This document shows positions 5,686 through 25,729 of a stretch of 30,309 bases of DNA, piece after piece. Every line of letters starts with the position of its first letter. Position 1 is the first letter of the stretch. A program made the translations under genes and the position numbers. Origin of the DNA: an uncultured Anaerolineae bacterium (lineage in GTDB: Bacteria; Chloroflexota; Anaerolineae; VGOG01); contig CAZGKH010000002.1 of assembly GCA_964525665.1 (NCBI GenBank), forward strand, positions 1 through 30,309, given 5' to 3'. The notes beneath the pieces were generated by a model. The model ran no database searches. It saw nothing but the letters and a program-made list of their open reading frames with translations, and was not told the DNA's origin.

Positions 5686-5757
5686 CCGATTGGCCAACTT
5701 TGCAGACCTAATTCTCGTTCTCCACGATACGTCTCCGGGCCTTTAGATGACCAAGTG

Positions 5758-5906
5758 TCAACTTACGAGAGCGATCCAGACTTCGGAGGTTTTCAGACAC
5801 GATTTCGCCAGCAAACCAACCAGATAATCCCTGTCCTGAGCCTGTCGAAGGGAACGTAACTTTGCCAGCAGAGACACTGCCGGAAACCTCCGAAGTCTTA
5901 AGTTGA
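5758..5906. repeat. ~150-bp MITE-like element with nested inverted repeats
   Basis: Outer IR tcaactta (5758-5765) / taagttga (5899-5906). Perfect 15-bp IR agacttcggaggttt (5778-5792) / aaacctccgaagtct (5884-5898). Encloses the 21-bp element at 5832-5852. Confidence 0.7.
5832..5852. repeat. 21-bp 'GTCCTGAGCCTGTCGAAGGG' element
   Basis: tgtcctgagcctgtcgaaggg is identical to 14191-14211. A variant lies at 17543-17563 on the minus strand. Confidence 0.85.
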
Positions 5907-5934
5907 ATGTTTACACGACCAGCTAGGGCATTGA

Positions 5935-5963
5935 GCCGCCTCCCACTGAAGTCGGGAGGCGAC
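5935..5963. repeat. GC-rich REP-like hairpin
   Basis: gccgcctccc-actgaagtc-gggaggcgac; arms pair at 9 of 10 positions. Confidence 0.55.
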
Positions 5964-5995
5964 TGTGTGCTCTTGGCCGAGGTCGCGGCCGAGCC

Positions 5996-6024
5996 TTGAC
6001 TTTTTGCGTTCTCAATAGTATCAT
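5996..6024 (+). promoter_or_regulatory. Sigma70-type promoter for the zincin/PsbP/WXG-like cassette
   Basis: TTGACT (5996-6001) - 17 nt - TATCAT (6019-6024). Confidence 0.7.
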
Positions 6025-6038
6025 TCATGGAGACCATC

Positions 6039-6482
6039 ATGGGCCAGCCTGGGGGAATCCAGAAACTTCAGGATGGCTTGGCAGCACTGGAGAAAGCGAG
6101 GGTGGGCCACTCAATTGCAGCAGCCATCCGTGAGCAAGGTACAACCGTGCGATTTGGCCAGGCAGGCGAAGACGCCATCGCCTGTTTTGATCCCGATAGG
6201 AACGAAATTGTAATCGGTGAAGGGTTGAAGGACGCTTCACTTAACGTTCTGGTTCAACACCTGGCCCACGAAGGCACCCATGTGCAATGGGATCGCCTTC
6301 CTTCCATTGATCAGGAATATCACGCCTTCAAGGCTGAAGCTGAAGTTTGGAATGAACTGAAAGGAAACGAGACGGACAAGCAATGCGATCAGGTTAGCGA
6401 GATGATCTCTTTAGGGAAGGCGGAAGCCAAGAAGGTGATCCGCCGTGCTCCCTCTTATCGGAACCTACCGGAGTACGCTTGA
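6039..6482 (+). CDS. Small stand-alone zincin-type metallopeptidase domain (HExxH), toxin-domain-like
   Basis: LAHEGTHVQW followed by SIDQEYHAF (candidate third ligand Glu). Start is ATG 6039 (GGAG upstream) or ATG 6027. No signal peptide. Confidence 0.65.
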   Translation: MGQPGGIQKLQDGLAALEKARVGHSIAAAIREQGTTVRFGQAGEDAIACFDPDRNEIVIGEGLKDASLNVLVQHLAHEGTHVQWDRLPSIDQEYHAFKAEAEVWNELKGNETDKQCDQVSEMISLGKAEAKKVIRRAPSYRNLPEYA

Positions 6483-6509
6483 GCAACACAGGCGAGGAGG
6501 TGATTCGTT

Positions 6510-7127
6510 ATGCTGCAAAAAGGTTACGTCCCATTTCAATCCAGTCAACCCCGCATACCATGCACCTTTCTCTATCCTGTTGGTTGGGATGTACGAGAGA
6601 TCGTAGAGGACGGGTATGTAGAGATTTTCATCCTCGGGCCCATTAGTCGGGCAGGAACCTATTCAACAACCTTGTCGGTAGGGGTGACCCGCACTGCGGG
6701 CCAAACACCGCTAGAGGCGGCGAATGCGCTGGTTTCCAAATACCGTGCTGCTTTCAAGGCCCAGGAACGGGGCCCGTTCTCTGCCACAGTAGCCGGAAGG
6801 CCAGCAGTGGAAGTGGAGATTGCCTATTCCATGCTCCTGCCGCTGAACAGTCTGGACGCCAAACAGACCCCAATTCGCGAACGGCGCATCTTTTTTGAGG
6901 AAGACGATCAACTTTACGAAGTGGATTACACAGCCCCGGAAGAGGATTATGAAACCTGGTTAGGGGCCTTCCGCACCTTGGTGCAGACCTTCGTTTTTCC
7001 GGAGGAACCCATCAAGAGAGTCCCTTATCGTCCGATCATAACAGCGGCCCCTCAGTACGTTAGCGAAGATACGATGGAATACGGGTCTGACAGGGGAGAA
7101 AGCGATGAGCAATCTGAACACCACTAG
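6510..7127 (+). CDS. PsbP/DcrB(DUF1795)-like fold protein, cytoplasmic
   Basis: Pattern FLYPVGW ... VAGRPAVEV ... LYEVDYTAPEEDYETWLGAFRTLVQTFVF. GAGGAGG RBS. No signal peptide. Confidence 0.55.
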   Translation: MLQKGYVPFQSSQPRIPCTFLYPVGWDVREIVEDGYVEIFILGPISRAGTYSTTLSVGVTRTAGQTPLEAANALVSKYRAAFKAQERGPFSATVAGRPAVEVEIAYSMLLPLNSLDAKQTPIRERRIFFEEDDQLYEVDYTAPEEDYETWLGAFRTLVQTFVFPEEPIKRVPYRPIITAAPQYVSEDTMEYGSDRGESDEQSEHH

Positions 7128-7320
7128 AGCTGAGTTACACGAATCCTGGCAGCGCGTGCGCCAGCGCTGGCAGGGGACGACGGCTCTTTGGAACGACTCG
7201 GTGCATCGGCAGTTTGAGCGGGAGTTCTGGCAGCCGCTGGAGGACCAGGTGCCGGCCACCCTGAAAGAAATGGAGCGGCTGACCGAGGTTATCACCCAGG
7301 CGCGGCGGAGCGTGAAGTAA
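7105..7320 (+). CDS. WXG100-like small helical-hairpin protein (W-x-D variant)
   Basis: 71 aa, two amphipathic helices around central LWNDSVHRQFE. Overlaps the upstream gene; GGAG RBS. Confidence 0.55.
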   Translation: MSNLNTTRAELHESWQRVRQRWQGTTALWNDSVHRQFEREFWQPLEDQVPATLKEMERLTEVITQARRSVK

Positions 7321-7334
7321 GAAAGTGAGGTGTT

Positions 7335-7757
7335 ATGATGACTGTCCAAACTGTGACGCTGAATATGCCGAGTATTCTCTATGACCGGATCAAACATCGA
7401 GCGGAGCAGACGCATCGCTCTGTCGAAGCGGAATTGCTCGAAGCAGTGGCAAGGGCTGTGCCAGTGGCGGATGAACTGCCGCCGGATTTGGCTGAGACGA
7501 TTTCTCCCCTTGCTCACTTGGACGACGGGACTCTGCAACGTGCTGCCCGCAGTCATTTCCCCACCGAAAAAGCAACCGAGCTAGAAGCGTTGCACCTCAA
7601 GCGTCAAGACGAAGGGCTGACTGAAGATGGAGCGCAAAGAGCAGCCGAGTTGACGCACCAGTATGAGCGAGCGATGCTTATCCGCGCGCAGGCAACGGCA
7701 TTGCTTATGCAGCGCGGTTACGATGTTTCTGCCCTGATTACGGCTGAGCCGGAATGA
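7335..7757 (+). CDS. Ribbon-helix-helix/Arc-like putative antitoxin paired with the HNH gene
   Basis: N-terminus TVTLNMPSILYDRIKHRAEQTHRSVEAEL. GAGGTG RBS. ATGA overlap with the HNH gene. Confidence 0.55.
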   Translation: MMTVQTVTLNMPSILYDRIKHRAEQTHRSVEAELLEAVARAVPVADELPPDLAETISPLAHLDDGTLQRAARSHFPTEKATELEALHLKRQDEGLTEDGAQRAAELTHQYERAMLIRAQATALLMQRGYDVSALITAEPE

Positions 7758-8179
7758 GCGAGTATATTCCCAAACCCTTGCGTGAGCGCGTCACCGTGCA
7801 AGCGCGACACCGCTGCGGCTACTGTCTGACATCCGAAGCGATTGTCGGCACACCAATGGAGATAGACCATATCGTCCCACGCTCGTTGGGTGGCCTGACC
7901 GAGGAAGACAACCTGTGGCTGGCGTGTTCGCTCTGCAACGAACACAAAGGCGTCCGCACGGTTGCGCTGGACCTGCTTACAGGCGAAATGGTGCCACTGT
8001 TCAACCCACGCCGTCAGGTCTGGCAAGAGCATTTCGAGTAGACAGCCGAGGGCGATCGCATCATTGGCTTGACAGCGATCGGACGCACAACATTCGTCGC
8101 ACTGAATCTGAACCGGCCATCGCTCGTCAAGGCACGTCAAGTATGGGTGGCGGCAGGCTGGCACCCGCCGAAAGACTAG
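7754..8179 (+). pseudogene. HNH endonuclease interrupted by an in-frame TAG
   Basis: RCGYC ... EIDHIVPRSLGG ... NLWLACSLCNEHKG. TAG at 8039-8041, after which the same frame continues TAEGDRIIGLTAIGRTTFVALNLNR...WVAAGWHPPKD to TAG 8177-8179. Confidence 0.8.
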
Positions 8180-8207: not shown

Positions 8208-10163
8208 ATGGACAAACCAAAAGAGACGTACCATATCATCCTCAAGCCCTCGGGCAATCGAATAGAAGTCGGGGACGGCACGCTGCTGTCCGATGCCATT
8301 GACCAGGCACGTGTCCTGGACGGACAGTACAGGGCCGGGCTGGAACTCAACCTGCCCTGTGGCGGCCAGGGACGCTGCGGACGCTGCAAGGTGGTGGTCG
8401 AGGAAGGACAGGTCAAGCGTCGCTCCGTCAGCCGTCTCTCAAAGACGGAGCTGGAGCAGGGCTATGCTCTGGCCTGCCAGACCGTCATCGAGAGTGATCT
8501 GGCGGTCTTCATACCGCCACAGGAGGCGATCCTTCGCAAGCTGCCCAGCGAGAAGGAGGCCAAGAAGGTCATCACTCTGCCGGTGGAGTGTGACTGGCGG
8601 AAGAATCCAGTTCGCTCCTTCTTCCTGGAGATCGAGCCGCCCAGCCTGGCTGATAACACCACCGACTTCGAGCGTCTCAAGAGGGAGTTGGCCCGTCAAC
8701 ACGGTGTCAGGGGGCTGGTGGCTGACCTGCCCGTGATCAAGAAGCTGTCCCGCACCCTGCGAGACGCCGACTGGCGGGTGACCGCTGTCCTGGATATGAG
8801 CACCTGGGTCTCCCCCGATGGCCCTCCCCGGCTCATTGACCTGCGCCCCGGCGACCGCACGACGAGCTCCTGGGCAGTGGCCGTGGACATCGGCACCACC
8901 TCCAATGTGGTCTATCTGGTCAACCTTTTGACCAGCGAGGTGGTGGACACGGCCGCGGAGTACAACGGCCAGATCTCCTGCGGCGAGGACGTCATCTCCC
9001 GCATCATCTACGCCACCAAGCAGGAAGGGGGCTTAGACCACTTGCAGCGGCTGGTAGTGCAGACCATAAACGGACTCATTGATGAGTTGGTTGAGCGCAA
9101 CGGGATAGACGCGGCAGAGATTGACAAGATGACGGTGGCTGGCAACACCACCATGATCCACCTCTTTCTGGGCCTCTGGCCGGAGTCCATCCGCCTTGAA
9201 CCCTACGCGCCCACCATCAACCACCCGCTGCCCGTCAAGGCGTATGAGTTGGGCTTGCACATCAATCCCGAAGCCACGGTGGACTGCCTGCCCGGCGTGG
9301 GCGCCTACGTGGGGGCTGATACCACGGCGGGTGTTCTCAGCTCCCTCATGTATCAGACAGAGGCGTTGACGCTCTTCATTGACGTGGGCACCAATGGAGA
9401 GATAGTGTTGGGCAACTTCGATTGGCTTCTGTCCTGTGCCTGTTCGGCTGGCCCAGCCTTTGAGGGCGCAGGGGTGCAGTCAGGGATGAGAGCAACAATA
9501 GGAGCCGTCGAAGAGGTATGGATCAACACCAGGACTTACGAACCGACCTACCGGGTCATTGGCGATGTGCCTCCGCGAGGCATCTGCGGCTCAGGGATGA
9601 TCTCGCTGCTGGCGGAGATGTTCATCACCGGCATCGTTGATAAGGGTGGCAAGGTCAACCAGAGCCTGGACACGCCGAGGGTGCGTGTCGGTGAACATGG
9701 CCCGGAGTACGTGGTTGCCTGGGCCGAGGAGACGCGACGTAAGGCCAAGGACGTGGTGATTACCGAGGTGGACATCACCAATCTGATACGGGCCAAGGCA
9801 GCCTTCTACGCCGGTTTCTCGGTACTGACCCGCAGCGTGGGTTTGCAGTTGGCCGAGGTAGAGCAGGTGCTCATCGGCGGGGCCTTTGGCCAATACATCA
9901 ACGTGGAGAAGGCCATCCAGATCGGGCTGCTGCCGGACATGCCCTGGGAACGCTTCAAGTATCTGGGCAATACCTCGGCTATGGGGGCTTACACGGCCCT
10001 CCTATGCCCCGACATGCGCCAGGAGGTGATGGACATTGCCAGCAAGATGACCTACCTGGAACTGTCGGCCGATAACACCTTCATGGACGAGTTCATCAAG
10101 GCCCTATTCCTGCCCCATACTGACCTGGCCAGTTTCCCGTCGGTGGTCAGGCTGCTGGGCTAG
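8208..10163 (+). CDS. acsV: ASKHA-domain corrinoid reductive activator (RACo/DUF4445) with N-terminal 2Fe-2S ferredoxin
   Basis: LPCGGQGRCGRCKV...LACQ, VDIGTTS, FIDVGTNGEIVLG, CSAGPAFEG, GICGSG and IGGAFGQYI. Located in the acs cluster. Confidence 0.92.
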   Translation: MDKPKETYHIILKPSGNRIEVGDGTLLSDAIDQARVLDGQYRAGLELNLPCGGQGRCGRCKVVVEEGQVKRRSVSRLSKTELEQGYALACQTVIESDLAVFIPPQEAILRKLPSEKEAKKVITLPVECDWRKNPVRSFFLEIEPPSLADNTTDFERLKRELARQHGVRGLVADLPVIKKLSRTLRDADWRVTAVLDMSTWVSPDGPPRLIDLRPGDRTTSSWAVAVDIGTTSNVVYLVNLLTSEVVDTAAEYNGQISCGEDVISRIIYATKQEGGLDHLQRLVVQTINGLIDELVERNGIDAAEIDKMTVAGNTTMIHLFLGLWPESIRLEPYAPTINHPLPVKAYELGLHINPEATVDCLPGVGAYVGADTTAGVLSSLMYQTEALTLFIDVGTNGEIVLGNFDWLLSCACSAGPAFEGAGVQSGMRATIGAVEEVWINTRTYEPTYRVIGDVPPRGICGSGMISLLAEMFITGIVDKGGKVNQSLDTPRVRVGEHGPEYVVAWAEETRRKAKDVVITEVDITNLIRAKAAFYAGFSVLTRSVGLQLAEVEQVLIGGAFGQYINVEKAIQIGLLPDMPWERFKYLGNTSAMGAYTALLCPDMRQEVMDIASKMTYLELSADNTFMDEFIKALFLPHTDLASFPSVVRLLG

Positions 10164-25558: not shown

Positions 25559-25576
25559 AACCACGTCAACCACATA

Positions 25577-25714
25577 GTTCGTTCTCCGAGCCAGGCGACC
25601 TAAGGGTTGCAAGGGCCTATGGCGCATGGCCGCAGTGGGTGCCTGCATTTGGCAGAGCACCCCAACGGTACGGATGGAAACGTCCGTGCCCCCCGTCATT
25701 TGGAAAGGAGGACT
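25577..25714 (+). ncRNA. Moco/Wco (molybdenum cofactor) riboswitch-class RNA motif
   Basis: CTCCGAG; 11-nt tetraloop receptor CCTAAG (25599-25604) ... TATGG (25618-25622); GAAA tetraloop stem 25670-25687; 3' GCCCCCCGT...TGGAAAGGAG. Lies upstream of Mo/W uptake genes. Confidence 0.88.
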
Positions 25715-25729
25715 GAAACCACTGTCTGT

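Follow-up and report, generated by a model that had tools for sequence, protein, structure and literature searches.

Within a 30,309-nucleotide contig of an uncultured Anaerolineae bacterium (CAZGKH010000002.1 of assembly GCA_964525665.1; this whole stretch is called the window), an acs cluster contains a short cassette of three open reading frames (ORFs) at positions 5996–7320 of the forward strand, which we call genes A, B and C. Gene A (6027–6482) encodes a putative zincin of 151 aa, or 147 aa if translated from the in-frame ATG at 6039, gene B (6510–7127, 27 nt behind A) a 205-aa protein with a predicted PsbP/DcrB fold, and gene C (7105–7320, overlapping B by 23 nt) a 71-aa protein with a central W-x-D motif. 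Our analysis suggests that this cassette is probably an orphan, produced by reductive decay of a type VII-like polymorphic-toxin island, i.e. one with WXG100 proteins and an FtsK/SpoIIIE ATPase, that is located within the acs cluster in this Anaerolineae lineage. An earlier note, made from the letters of the DNA alone, had described three tightly linked genes with an HExxH...E domain, a PsbP/DcrB-like protein and a 71-aa protein with a WND motif; the three ORFs were found at the positions given there and the description is accurate in every checkable detail. It had further interpreted them as a self-contained, minimal effector unit of a type VII-like system, and this interpretation is partly supported: the type VII-like ancestry and the position of the zincin as C-terminal tip of a modular protein could be substantiated, but the cassette is a deletion derivative that retains only residues ~186–333 of the effector and none of the N-terminal domain, the WXG100 gene or the ATPase.

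The island from which the cassette would descend can be recognized in related Chloroflexota metagenome-assembled genomes (MAGs), whose loci, numbered with an L below, were reached through homologues of C. The gene order in these MAGs is a WXG100 gene (PF06013), a gene for a protein of 331–333 aa, B, C, a protein with one transmembrane (TM) helix and an FtsK/SpoIIIE ATPase of 940–960 aa. The 331–333-aa protein, the effector, consists of a helical domain of ~185 aa, called the N-domain below, fused to the zincin of A (~147 aa). In tblastn searches A corresponds to residues 186–333 of this protein with 61% identity, and residues 1–185 are unmatched in the window. As the match is confined to residues 186–333, A is the C-terminal tip of a modular effector, with a predicted toxic function.

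In the relatives, homologues of A, B and C sit in loci with Pfam-positive WXG100 genes and an ATPase of 920–1322 aa. One or two WXG100 genes lie directly upstream of the effector gene; their products score 27.6–34.6 bits against the PF06013 cut-off of 27.3 bits, read W-R/Q-D at the motif and find HP0062 (E-value 1e-9), EsxB (9e-6) and also EsxA in the PDB. The ATPase matches FtsK_SpoIIIE with an E-value of 2e-41; it occupies the syntenic position in L008 and L023 and occurs in at least 15 other related loci. The form found in Anaerolineae has 920–960 aa and no TM helices, and is accompanied by the separate one-TM protein. The N-domain gave no Pfam or PDB match, LXG was not detected by Pfam even at E-values up to 1, and the domain has a motif of its own, C-x-ASGY...YH-x-PDCS. 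At least three different C-terminal domains are attached to it, among them the zincin (331–333 aa) and two unrelated ones (350 aa in L002, L004 and L005; 275 aa in L036), and in L049 it has no tip at all (190 aa). A delivery domain with interchangeable C-terminal domains is thus present in the relatives, and the window keeps the tip alone. Judged from gene content and domain composition, the loci of the relatives have the architecture of a polymorphic toxin system joined to a type VII-like core.

A compact version of this core was found in a distant lineage, GCA_054870525.1 and its relatives (L049–L051), in which a WXG100 protein, a 190-aa protein consisting of the N-domain only, a 70-aa homologue of C and a 1322-aa FtsK/SpoIIIE ATPase form a four-gene unit. 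This arrangement points to the N-domain protein and C as core components of the system. The ATPase of L049 has two TM helices fused to it and is the sole membrane-anchored case; the ATPase of Anaerolineae would be a split form of the L049 type.

Several further observations were made on the diversity of such loci. A locus in a Verrucomicrobiota MAG (L048, DAOPPX010000001.1, 5766–11761), a phylum that is presumably diderm, contains FtsK, a proline-rich TM protein, WXG100, an N-domain::zincin fusion with the motif HEATH, and C; an unrecognised ORF of ~170–213 aa stands at the position of B, and a 184-aa ORF behind C may resemble an ADP-ribosyltransferase, a similarity seen by eye only. In L002 (14191–14562) and L004 (10612–10983) a 123-aa ORF downstream of a second effector cassette duplicates the C-terminal end of the ATPase and in this resembles the essC 3' fragments of variable type VIIb secretion system (T7SSb) loci.

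The decay itself can be followed at one chromosomal site, the interval between the PAP2 phosphatase and RACo genes. The fullest version is that of L023, with PMT_2, WXG100, the N-domain::A fusion, B, C, RHH, HNH, TM166 and FtsK, and subsets of these genes in the same order are found in L006, L008, L009 and L011. On the side of the window, the searches for absent components cover the 30-kb contig, in which tblastn, Pfam and profile searches yielded no N-domain, no WXG100 (PF06013) and no FtsK/SpoIIIE ATPase gene. Intact PMT_2, TM166 and ATPase genes are also absent from the window; the last two are gone between the HNH gene and RACo, so that RACo starts at 8208, where the relatives hold the TM protein and the FtsK ATPase.

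The left-hand junction is particularly informative. Positions 5912–6025 of the window match L009 over the 3' end of PMT_2 and the intergenic stretch in front of WXG100; from 6058 onward the window matches the C-terminal domain of the toxin, which points to a clean deletion of ~907 nt that comprised WXG100 and the N-domain. The break falls directly after the -10 hexamer of the promoter described below. The same junction is present in the standalone A–B loci L012–L017, so that it must have been inherited and did not arise by accident in the window alone. The idea that A is a one-off truncation was considered and dropped, because the junction recurs in L015–L017 and in L012–L014. The direction of the change is given by L015–L017, where the initial 30 codons of TM166 survive next to RACo; this marks it as loss and not gain. 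An artefact of assembly does not account for the junction, since contigs of an independent vent metagenome assembly cover 5877–7197 with one mismatch. Marine and vent metagenomes contain further variants of the site, namely the fused form, B joined to RACo with no C, RHH or HNH, and the promoter or PAP2 joined directly to RACo.

The cassette is furthermore a recombination mosaic. At the DNA level positions 6039–6218 are 83–89% identical to L008 and positions 6399–6938 are 89–94% identical to L023, and the 3' end of B and gene C are closest to L009. These abrupt switches of identity along the cassette argue for frequent recombination among strains. Amino-acid identities to the same loci differ between the proteins (50–61% for B, 63–75% for A and 68–82% for C), i.e. 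divergence is unequal, an observation made on window positions 6166–6479.

In front of gene A, positions 5996–6024 of the forward strand read as a sigma-70-type promoter (TTGACT, 17 nt, TATCAT), the near-consensus promoter of the earlier note, with 10 of 12 consensus matches. By number alone such a site means little, as one promoter-type site was found in 3.4 kb vs 1.7 expected from shuffled sequences, a count not above chance. The stretch GCCTTGACTTTTTG...TCTC(G/A)ATAGTATCATT is, however, identical in six loci with divergent flanks; these loci, WXG100-led and standalone forms alike, do not differ in either hexamer or in most of the spacer, and the sequences part directly after the -10 hexamer. 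Because of this invariance amid differing flanks we accept 5996–6024 as a likely genuine promoter. In the relatives it would drive the WXG100-effector operon, and in the window it is joined straight to the toxin domain. The -10 hexamer ends 2 nt before the ATG at 6027, so that a transcript would have almost no leader for this start. The ATG at 6039 is preceded by GGAG at 6029–6032 and is also the start of the standalone homologue in L015.

Such a truncated cassette could also be non-functional debris, neither transcribed nor translated and on its way to being lost. Its surroundings would fit this, with a putative mobile-element insertion, a remnant of PMT_2 and a premature stop in the HNH gene (all described below), as would the existence of strains that lack the whole cassette and the near absence of a leader for A. 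The genes themselves do not, as A, B and C are free of stops and frameshifts, the promoter is conserved and the catalytic residues of A are invariant across many standalone copies. The ratio of nonsynonymous to synonymous substitution rates (dN/dS), given for those comparisons in which it was computable because dS is saturated in several pairs, lies well below 1, with 0.08–0.37 for A, B and C, standalone copies included, and 0.08–0.20 for A. All three genes are under purifying selection, and we consider the debris explanation highly improbable.

To establish which of the genes belong together, a census was made of the window and 48 loci, i.e. 49 sources, by searches with profiles of the N-domain, of WXG100 and of each of the three cassette genes. 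Among the 46 cases with enough downstream sequence, B stands behind A in 45, at a distance of at most 170 nt, and it does so in three contexts: when A is fused to the N-domain, when A stands alone, and when A carries a short acidic extension beside an ATPase of the DUF87/HerA type. No B is present in cassettes with a non-zincin tip; there the gene for the effector is overlapped or immediately followed by C. C was found in all 18 complete loci with a fused N-domain and in two of the 20 without it, namely the window and L035, whose A-B-C trio lies in a fatty-acid synthesis cluster. These gene associations clearly indicate that B belongs with the zincin and C with the export domain. The role of C as a WXG carrier of the zincin is accordingly not supported, as C tracks the missing N-domain.

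This distribution also bears on the model of the earlier note, by which toxin, adaptor or immunity protein and WXG carrier would function together as a self-contained effector unit and leave the cell through type VII machinery whose genes lie at another place in the genome. The intactness of A, B and C, their purifying selection and the conserved promoter are in its favour, some related MAGs hold more than one locus, and the trio of L035 is a second standalone A-B-C arrangement at another genomic site. A, however, lacks the ~185-aa domain of every fused effector and has no WXG100 partner, C goes with the N-domain and not with the zincin, many A–B loci have no C at all, and it is precisely this locus that has lost its ATPase and TM genes. 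We therefore judge the model very unlikely.

Gene A shows the hallmarks of a zincin. The motif HEGTH, which contributes H81, E82, G83 and H85, is encoded at 6267–6281, and Glu97, the putative third ligand, follows 12 residues past the motif (6315–6317); H81, E82, G83, H85 and E97 are invariant in the homologues of A (n=32). The AlphaFold2 (AF2) model has a predicted local distance difference test (pLDDT) score of 94, and helices 72–88 and 94–111 bear HEGTH and E97, respectively. In a fold search of the PDB all top matches were zincins, led by the minigluzincins selecase, jannalysin and abylysin, although the matches were weak (E-values 0.01–0.06, TM-scores 0.45–0.6). Both sequence and predicted model thus combine HExxH, a glutamate on the next helix and a zincin fold, as expected of gluzincins.

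With regard to known families, A of the window reaches 23.8 bits against Pfam DUF6782, below the gathering cut-off of 27 bits, and is accordingly not a member of that family; the effector of L001 reaches 26.6 bits. All 32 relatives of A match DUF6782 at E-values below 0.1 (best 7.4e-9), over the first ~40% of the model (positions ~20–109), which indicates a related but shorter family. On the basis of the model we describe A as a DUF6782-related minimal gluzincin with predicted metal binding and catalysis. Searches of NCBIfam and PADLOC gave no match for any of the three proteins. IMG/VR contains no relative of A, and an origin of A from phages or other viruses was rejected. A word-indexed homologue search missed the fused effectors for A and underestimated family sizes, and was not used for estimates of abundance.

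The abundance of standalone forms raises the question whether A and B constitute an autonomous intracellular pair of protease and inhibitor, either housekeeping or toxin-antitoxin-like, that was repeatedly captured by the type VII-like system; in the window it would still perform its original task in the cytoplasm, with C being irrelevant. At least 80 clusters of A homologues were listed, mostly standalone forms of 145–155 aa with invariant catalytic residues, dN/dS between standalone copies is 0.13–0.20, and A–B pairs occur with no secretion genes nearby (L018, L030, L037, L041) or next to DUF87/HerA (L020, L042–L044). The history of the loci speaks for the opposite direction: the standalone copies in the acs slot have one junction in common with the promoter of the fused operon, the TM166 relic indicates that they derive from the island and not the reverse, and the N-terminus of A in L018 still holds the linker motif of the fused form. 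The presence or absence of the locus within the population in addition argues against a housekeeping role. Capture of an autonomous pair is for these reasons unlikely, and decay of an island remains our preferred explanation.

The second context of the A–B pair deserves a description of its own. It was found in MAGs of Anaerolineaceae, Longilinea and Ca. Aquidulcis (L020/L038, L042, L043 and L044), where a 916-aa ATPase of the DUF87/HerA type is immediately followed by an A homologue with an acidic N-terminal extension of ~45–60 aa and then by a short B homologue. Two paralogous zinc-ribbon/TM proteins precede the ATPase in L020/L038, and a related gene is present in L043. These loci may represent another translocation system with the same warhead.

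The AF2 model of B has a pLDDT of 82, with a core above 90 that forms an alpha-beta-alpha sandwich of the PsbP/DcrB/Mog1 type. Foldseek found cyanobacterial PsbP (2xb3, E-value 1.1e-7, TM-scores 0.56/0.71), DcrB (6e8a, 1.8e-4) and in addition EagT6, SciW, LpqN and the immunity protein Tsi3, and 24 of 27 relatives of B match Pfam PsbP weakly (best 3.5e-5). The fold searches agree with the earlier assignments for both proteins, although, as mentioned, the zincin matches of A are weak. The last ~40 residues of B (166–205) are acidic and predicted to be disordered, yet contain nearly invariant positions. By inspection neither A nor B has a hydrophobic N-terminus (a signal-peptide predictor was not used).

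For B an adaptor or immunity function had been envisaged, and the data favour the latter. Since B follows A whatever the N-terminus and is absent when the C-terminal domain is a different one, it behaves as an immunity protein or inhibitor, and in terms of genetic association with A it is the downstream, co-varying immunity gene that is typical of polymorphic toxins. We therefore consider B a probable cytoplasmic PsbP/DcrB-fold protein that serves as cognate immunity protein or inhibitor of the zincin. If B were instead a chaperone or adaptor of the Eag/DUF1795 type, which stabilises the effector for export, it would be expected to be tied to an N-terminal transmembrane region of the effector; its presence follows the C-terminal zincin independently of the N-terminus, including loci with no secretion genes, and it is missing where the same N-domain carries another tip. 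Eag chaperones bind N-terminal transmembrane helices (according to the titles of PDB entries 6xrf and 6xrr), and on inspection no hydrophobic segment is visible in A. The fold common to B, EagT6 and SciW would agree with a chaperone, and the conserved, disordered acidic tail could be a docking element, but the same fold serves immunity in Tsi3. An Eag-like function of B seems to us quite unlikely.

Gene C belongs to a large and uniform family. An exhaustive profile search yielded 1,238 representative clusters at 50% identity, nearly all of them 70–72 aa long, vs 22 clusters in the word-indexed search. Among 55 diverse relatives W29 and D31 are the sole invariant columns; in the window the motif W29-N30-D31 is encoded at 7189–7197, and inspection of the alignment shows hydrophobic positions in a heptad pattern on either side of it. 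C of the window has no Pfam match, PF06013 included, and PDB sequence searches with C alone or with a profile of its close relatives gave no meaningful match. PF06013 is matched weakly by 10 of the 55 relatives (E-values 2.5e-4 to 0.1), far above any other family, and WXG100_2 by two of them. In a direct comparison by hhalign, C aligns with the local WXG100 proteins (P-values 5.5e-5 and 7.4e-5, probability 62–66%), W-N-D being placed on W-R/Q-D, and a 10-residue gap is needed in the second helix. The second PDB match of the C profile is S. aureus EsxA (E-value 0.26), with the motifs in register. Taken together, these results are consistent with C being a divergent, short WXG100-like protein, at a moderate level of support. 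Given its distribution, C is a probable secretion accessory for an N-terminal export domain that the window lacks.

Based on these findings we propose the following course of events. Comparison shows that the ancestral operon consisted of the promoter, WXG100, the effector (~185-aa export domain and ~147-aa zincin), B, C, the one-TM protein and the ATPase. One deletion took WXG100 and the export domain, so that the toxin domain came to lie directly behind the promoter of the operon. Most of PMT_2 disappeared in a further loss, and the genes for the TM protein and the ATPase in yet another. In the intact system A would act as a zinc metalloprotease toxin domain in the cytoplasm, B would bind and neutralise it as cognate immunity protein or inhibitor, and C and the upstream WXG100 protein would form a bundle with the export domain and thereby target the effector to the ATPase, as Lap1 and Lap2 do for LXG toxins. 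Since A of the window has no export domain, its secretion, and canonical export in particular, is unlikely. The A–B pair is probably kept because B guards the cell against the matching toxin of neighbouring strains, or because A and B act as an addictive toxin-antidote pair, and C would be a leftover or spare part. Protection against the toxins of neighbours is suggested by the closest relative of B (~92% DNA identity), which is part of the intact island of L023.

A number of points weigh against this proposal. The loci of the census are not phylogenetically independent. Two cassettes with a non-zincin tip have no obvious immunity gene between the effector and C, so that the immunity rule is not a general one. 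The many standalone copies of A that keep their catalytic residues fit an intracellular function of A in its own right equally well. The kinship of C with WXG100 proteins is moderately supported (hhalign probability 62–66%, PDB E-value 0.26), the predicted promoter geometry leaves A nearly without a leader, and a search of RNA runs found none that contains the sequence.

Among known systems, the relatives' loci come closest to the T7SSb with its LXG toxins, for which small WXG100-like targeting partners (Lap1/Lap2, DUF3130/DUF3958) and downstream immunity genes have been described (PMC9600955, PMC10801868, PMC10765036); immunity genes are retained there by strains that lack the toxin (PMC10765036). 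In both cases small, helical, WXG100-like partners adjoin the effector, the toxin has a specific small gene behind it, the locus includes an FtsK/SpoIIIE ATPase, and the 3' region is hypervariable with C-terminal fragments of the ATPase and orphan modules. There are, however, clear differences. The N-domain of the relatives has no LXG match and instead its own cysteine-containing motif, partner C lies downstream of the immunity gene, has 71 aa and carries W-x-D, and the Anaerolineae ATPase is free of TM helices and accompanied by a separate one-TM protein. The hosts are Chloroflexota and one Verrucomicrobiota MAG and not Bacillota, and the window has retained just the toxin tip, B and C.

Orphan toxin-immunity modules also occur in polymorphic toxin loci such as those of contact-dependent inhibition (CDI) and Rhs. 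Like these, the cassette combines a toxin tip that lacks its delivery domain with a cognate downstream gene at a variable, mosaic locus. In contrast to them, the orphan of the window replaces the full-length gene and inherits its promoter, the machinery of the locus is gone, and the truncated form of A is common to several lineages.

The individual proteins have known counterparts as well. Like WXG100 proteins (EsxA/EsxB, H. pylori HP0062, PF06013), C is small, has a heptad periodicity flanking a central W-x-(G/D) and is linked to FtsK-type ATPases in the relatives, but it has 71 instead of ~95 aa, its representative in the window does not match PF06013, and its family is a distinct one, large and of uniform length. 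B has the fold of EagT6, SciW and Tsi3 (Foldseek E-values 1e-7 to 1e-3) and like them is encoded beside a secretion-system effector; it differs by a sequence identity of 8–20% to its fold matches, by the additional conserved acidic tail of ~40 residues and, when compared to Eag chaperones, by gene associations that follow the pattern of immunity and not that of a chaperone for N-terminal helices. A resembles the minigluzincins selecase, projannalysin and proabylysin in its HExxH motif with a glutamate on the next helix, its three-stranded sheet and its very small size, whereas its putative role as a warhead of a secretion system, its weak fold matches and its coverage of less than half of the DUF6782 model set it apart from minigluzincins and DUF6782.

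The cassette's position within an acs cluster, as reported before, was upheld. Upstream of it lie genes for ACS beta, two CdhD-type subunits, an alpha/beta hydrolase and the PAP2 phosphatase, and downstream an RHH/HNH pair, RACo, a pterin-binding methyltransferase and a MoCF gene. Directly in front of the promoter, 5912–5995 (forward strand) is a remnant of the 3' end of the PMT_2 glycosyltransferase gene, which in blastn is 82–85% identical to L009, L012 and L015 over the PMT_2 3' end and the adjoining intergenic region; a terminator-like hairpin (5972–5993) lies inside this stretch. On the other side, an RHH gene (Arc/FitA-like, 7335–7757) and an HNH endonuclease gene (7754–8179), both assigned by Pfam and on the forward strand, follow C as an insertion into the island; the same pair stands 3' of C in L009, L011 and L023, followed there by TM166 and FtsK. 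The HNH gene was at first taken as frameshifted, which was ruled out by the in-frame stop at 8039–8041. This stop changes HFAW to HFE*, with tryptophan in the relatives, and the remaining frame is intact, so that either a sequencing error or a nonsense mutation of very recent origin would account for it.

Between PAP2 and the PMT_2 remnant lies an element of ~150 nt (5753–5906) with nested terminal inverted repeats at 5758–5768/5896–5906 and 5778–5792/5884–5898, the latter 15 nt long and perfect. Its depth in four metagenomes is 5–10 times that of its flanks, and many different sequences flank it there, so that it looks like a multi-copy insert resembling a miniature inverted-repeat transposable element (MITE) at the former place of PMT_2. 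An ORF on the reverse strand (5708–6040) that runs across this element has no homologues and is probably spurious.

Further observations concern the wider cluster. Rfam gave no match in the cassette or close to it. Farther away, at 25572–25726 of the window, lies a Moco (molybdenum/tungsten cofactor) riboswitch, with 61.9 bits vs a gathering score of 36. In related MAGs the gene for the ACS/CODH beta subunit contains an intein (1–2063 in L012/L013, 1–2042 in L015): the 1286-aa ACS beta product of L012/L013 gave weak matches to Intein_splicing and LAGLIDADG_3, and the 904-aa product of L015 a faint match to Intein_splicing alone. In the acs clusters of relatives of the L012/L013/L015 type, the same intergenic slots hold toxin-antitoxin pairs (BrnT/CopG, PIN-like, MNT/HepT and HicB).

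As to what is new, orphans of toxin and immunity genes and type VII-like loci are of known kinds, but the N-domain, the 71-aa W-x-D family, the DUF6782-like warhead and its PsbP-fold partner are uncharacterised. Our literature search found no paper that mentions DUF6782. A 2011 survey by Sutcliffe is said to have listed WXG100/FtsK pairs in Chloroflexi and some Gram-negative phyla. The 2024 survey that named T7SSa to T7SSj placed these subtypes only in Actinomycetota and Bacillota (PMC11217815), and in the literature found, Chloroflexota appear only with a mention of a few WXG100 sequences (PMC3935865, PMC10765036).

We propose tentatively, with slightly less than even confidence, that the relatives define an uncharacterised type VII-related secretion system for the delivery of polymorphic toxins, whose core would consist of a WXG100 protein with W-x-D, the ~185-aa helical N-domain, the 71-aa W-x-D protein (more than 1,200 clusters) and the FtsK/SpoIIIE ATPase. 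If this is true, type VII-related systems would extend past Bacillota and Actinomycetota to Chloroflexota, a Verrucomicrobiota MAG and the lineage of L049, with an ATPase that is either split from or fused to its membrane anchor, and a new minimal zincin would be neutralised by an immunity protein of the PsbP fold.

For annotation, A, B and C of this genome should not be labelled a functional secretion module. Research on type VII secretion has been confined almost entirely to Actinomycetota and Bacillota. The window, itself a decayed copy, leads to uncharacterised families that occur together with WXG100 and an FtsK-type ATPase in uncultured Anaerolineae and beyond, and its chromosomal site displays every stage in the decay of such an island. 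It also raises hypotheses on the targeting of effectors by helical partners, on the inhibition of proteases by PsbP-fold proteins and on the persistence of immunity remnants after the weapon has been lost. If our proposal is true, orphan A–B(–C) modules would be traces of immunity that such warfare has left in anaerobic communities of vents and the sea.

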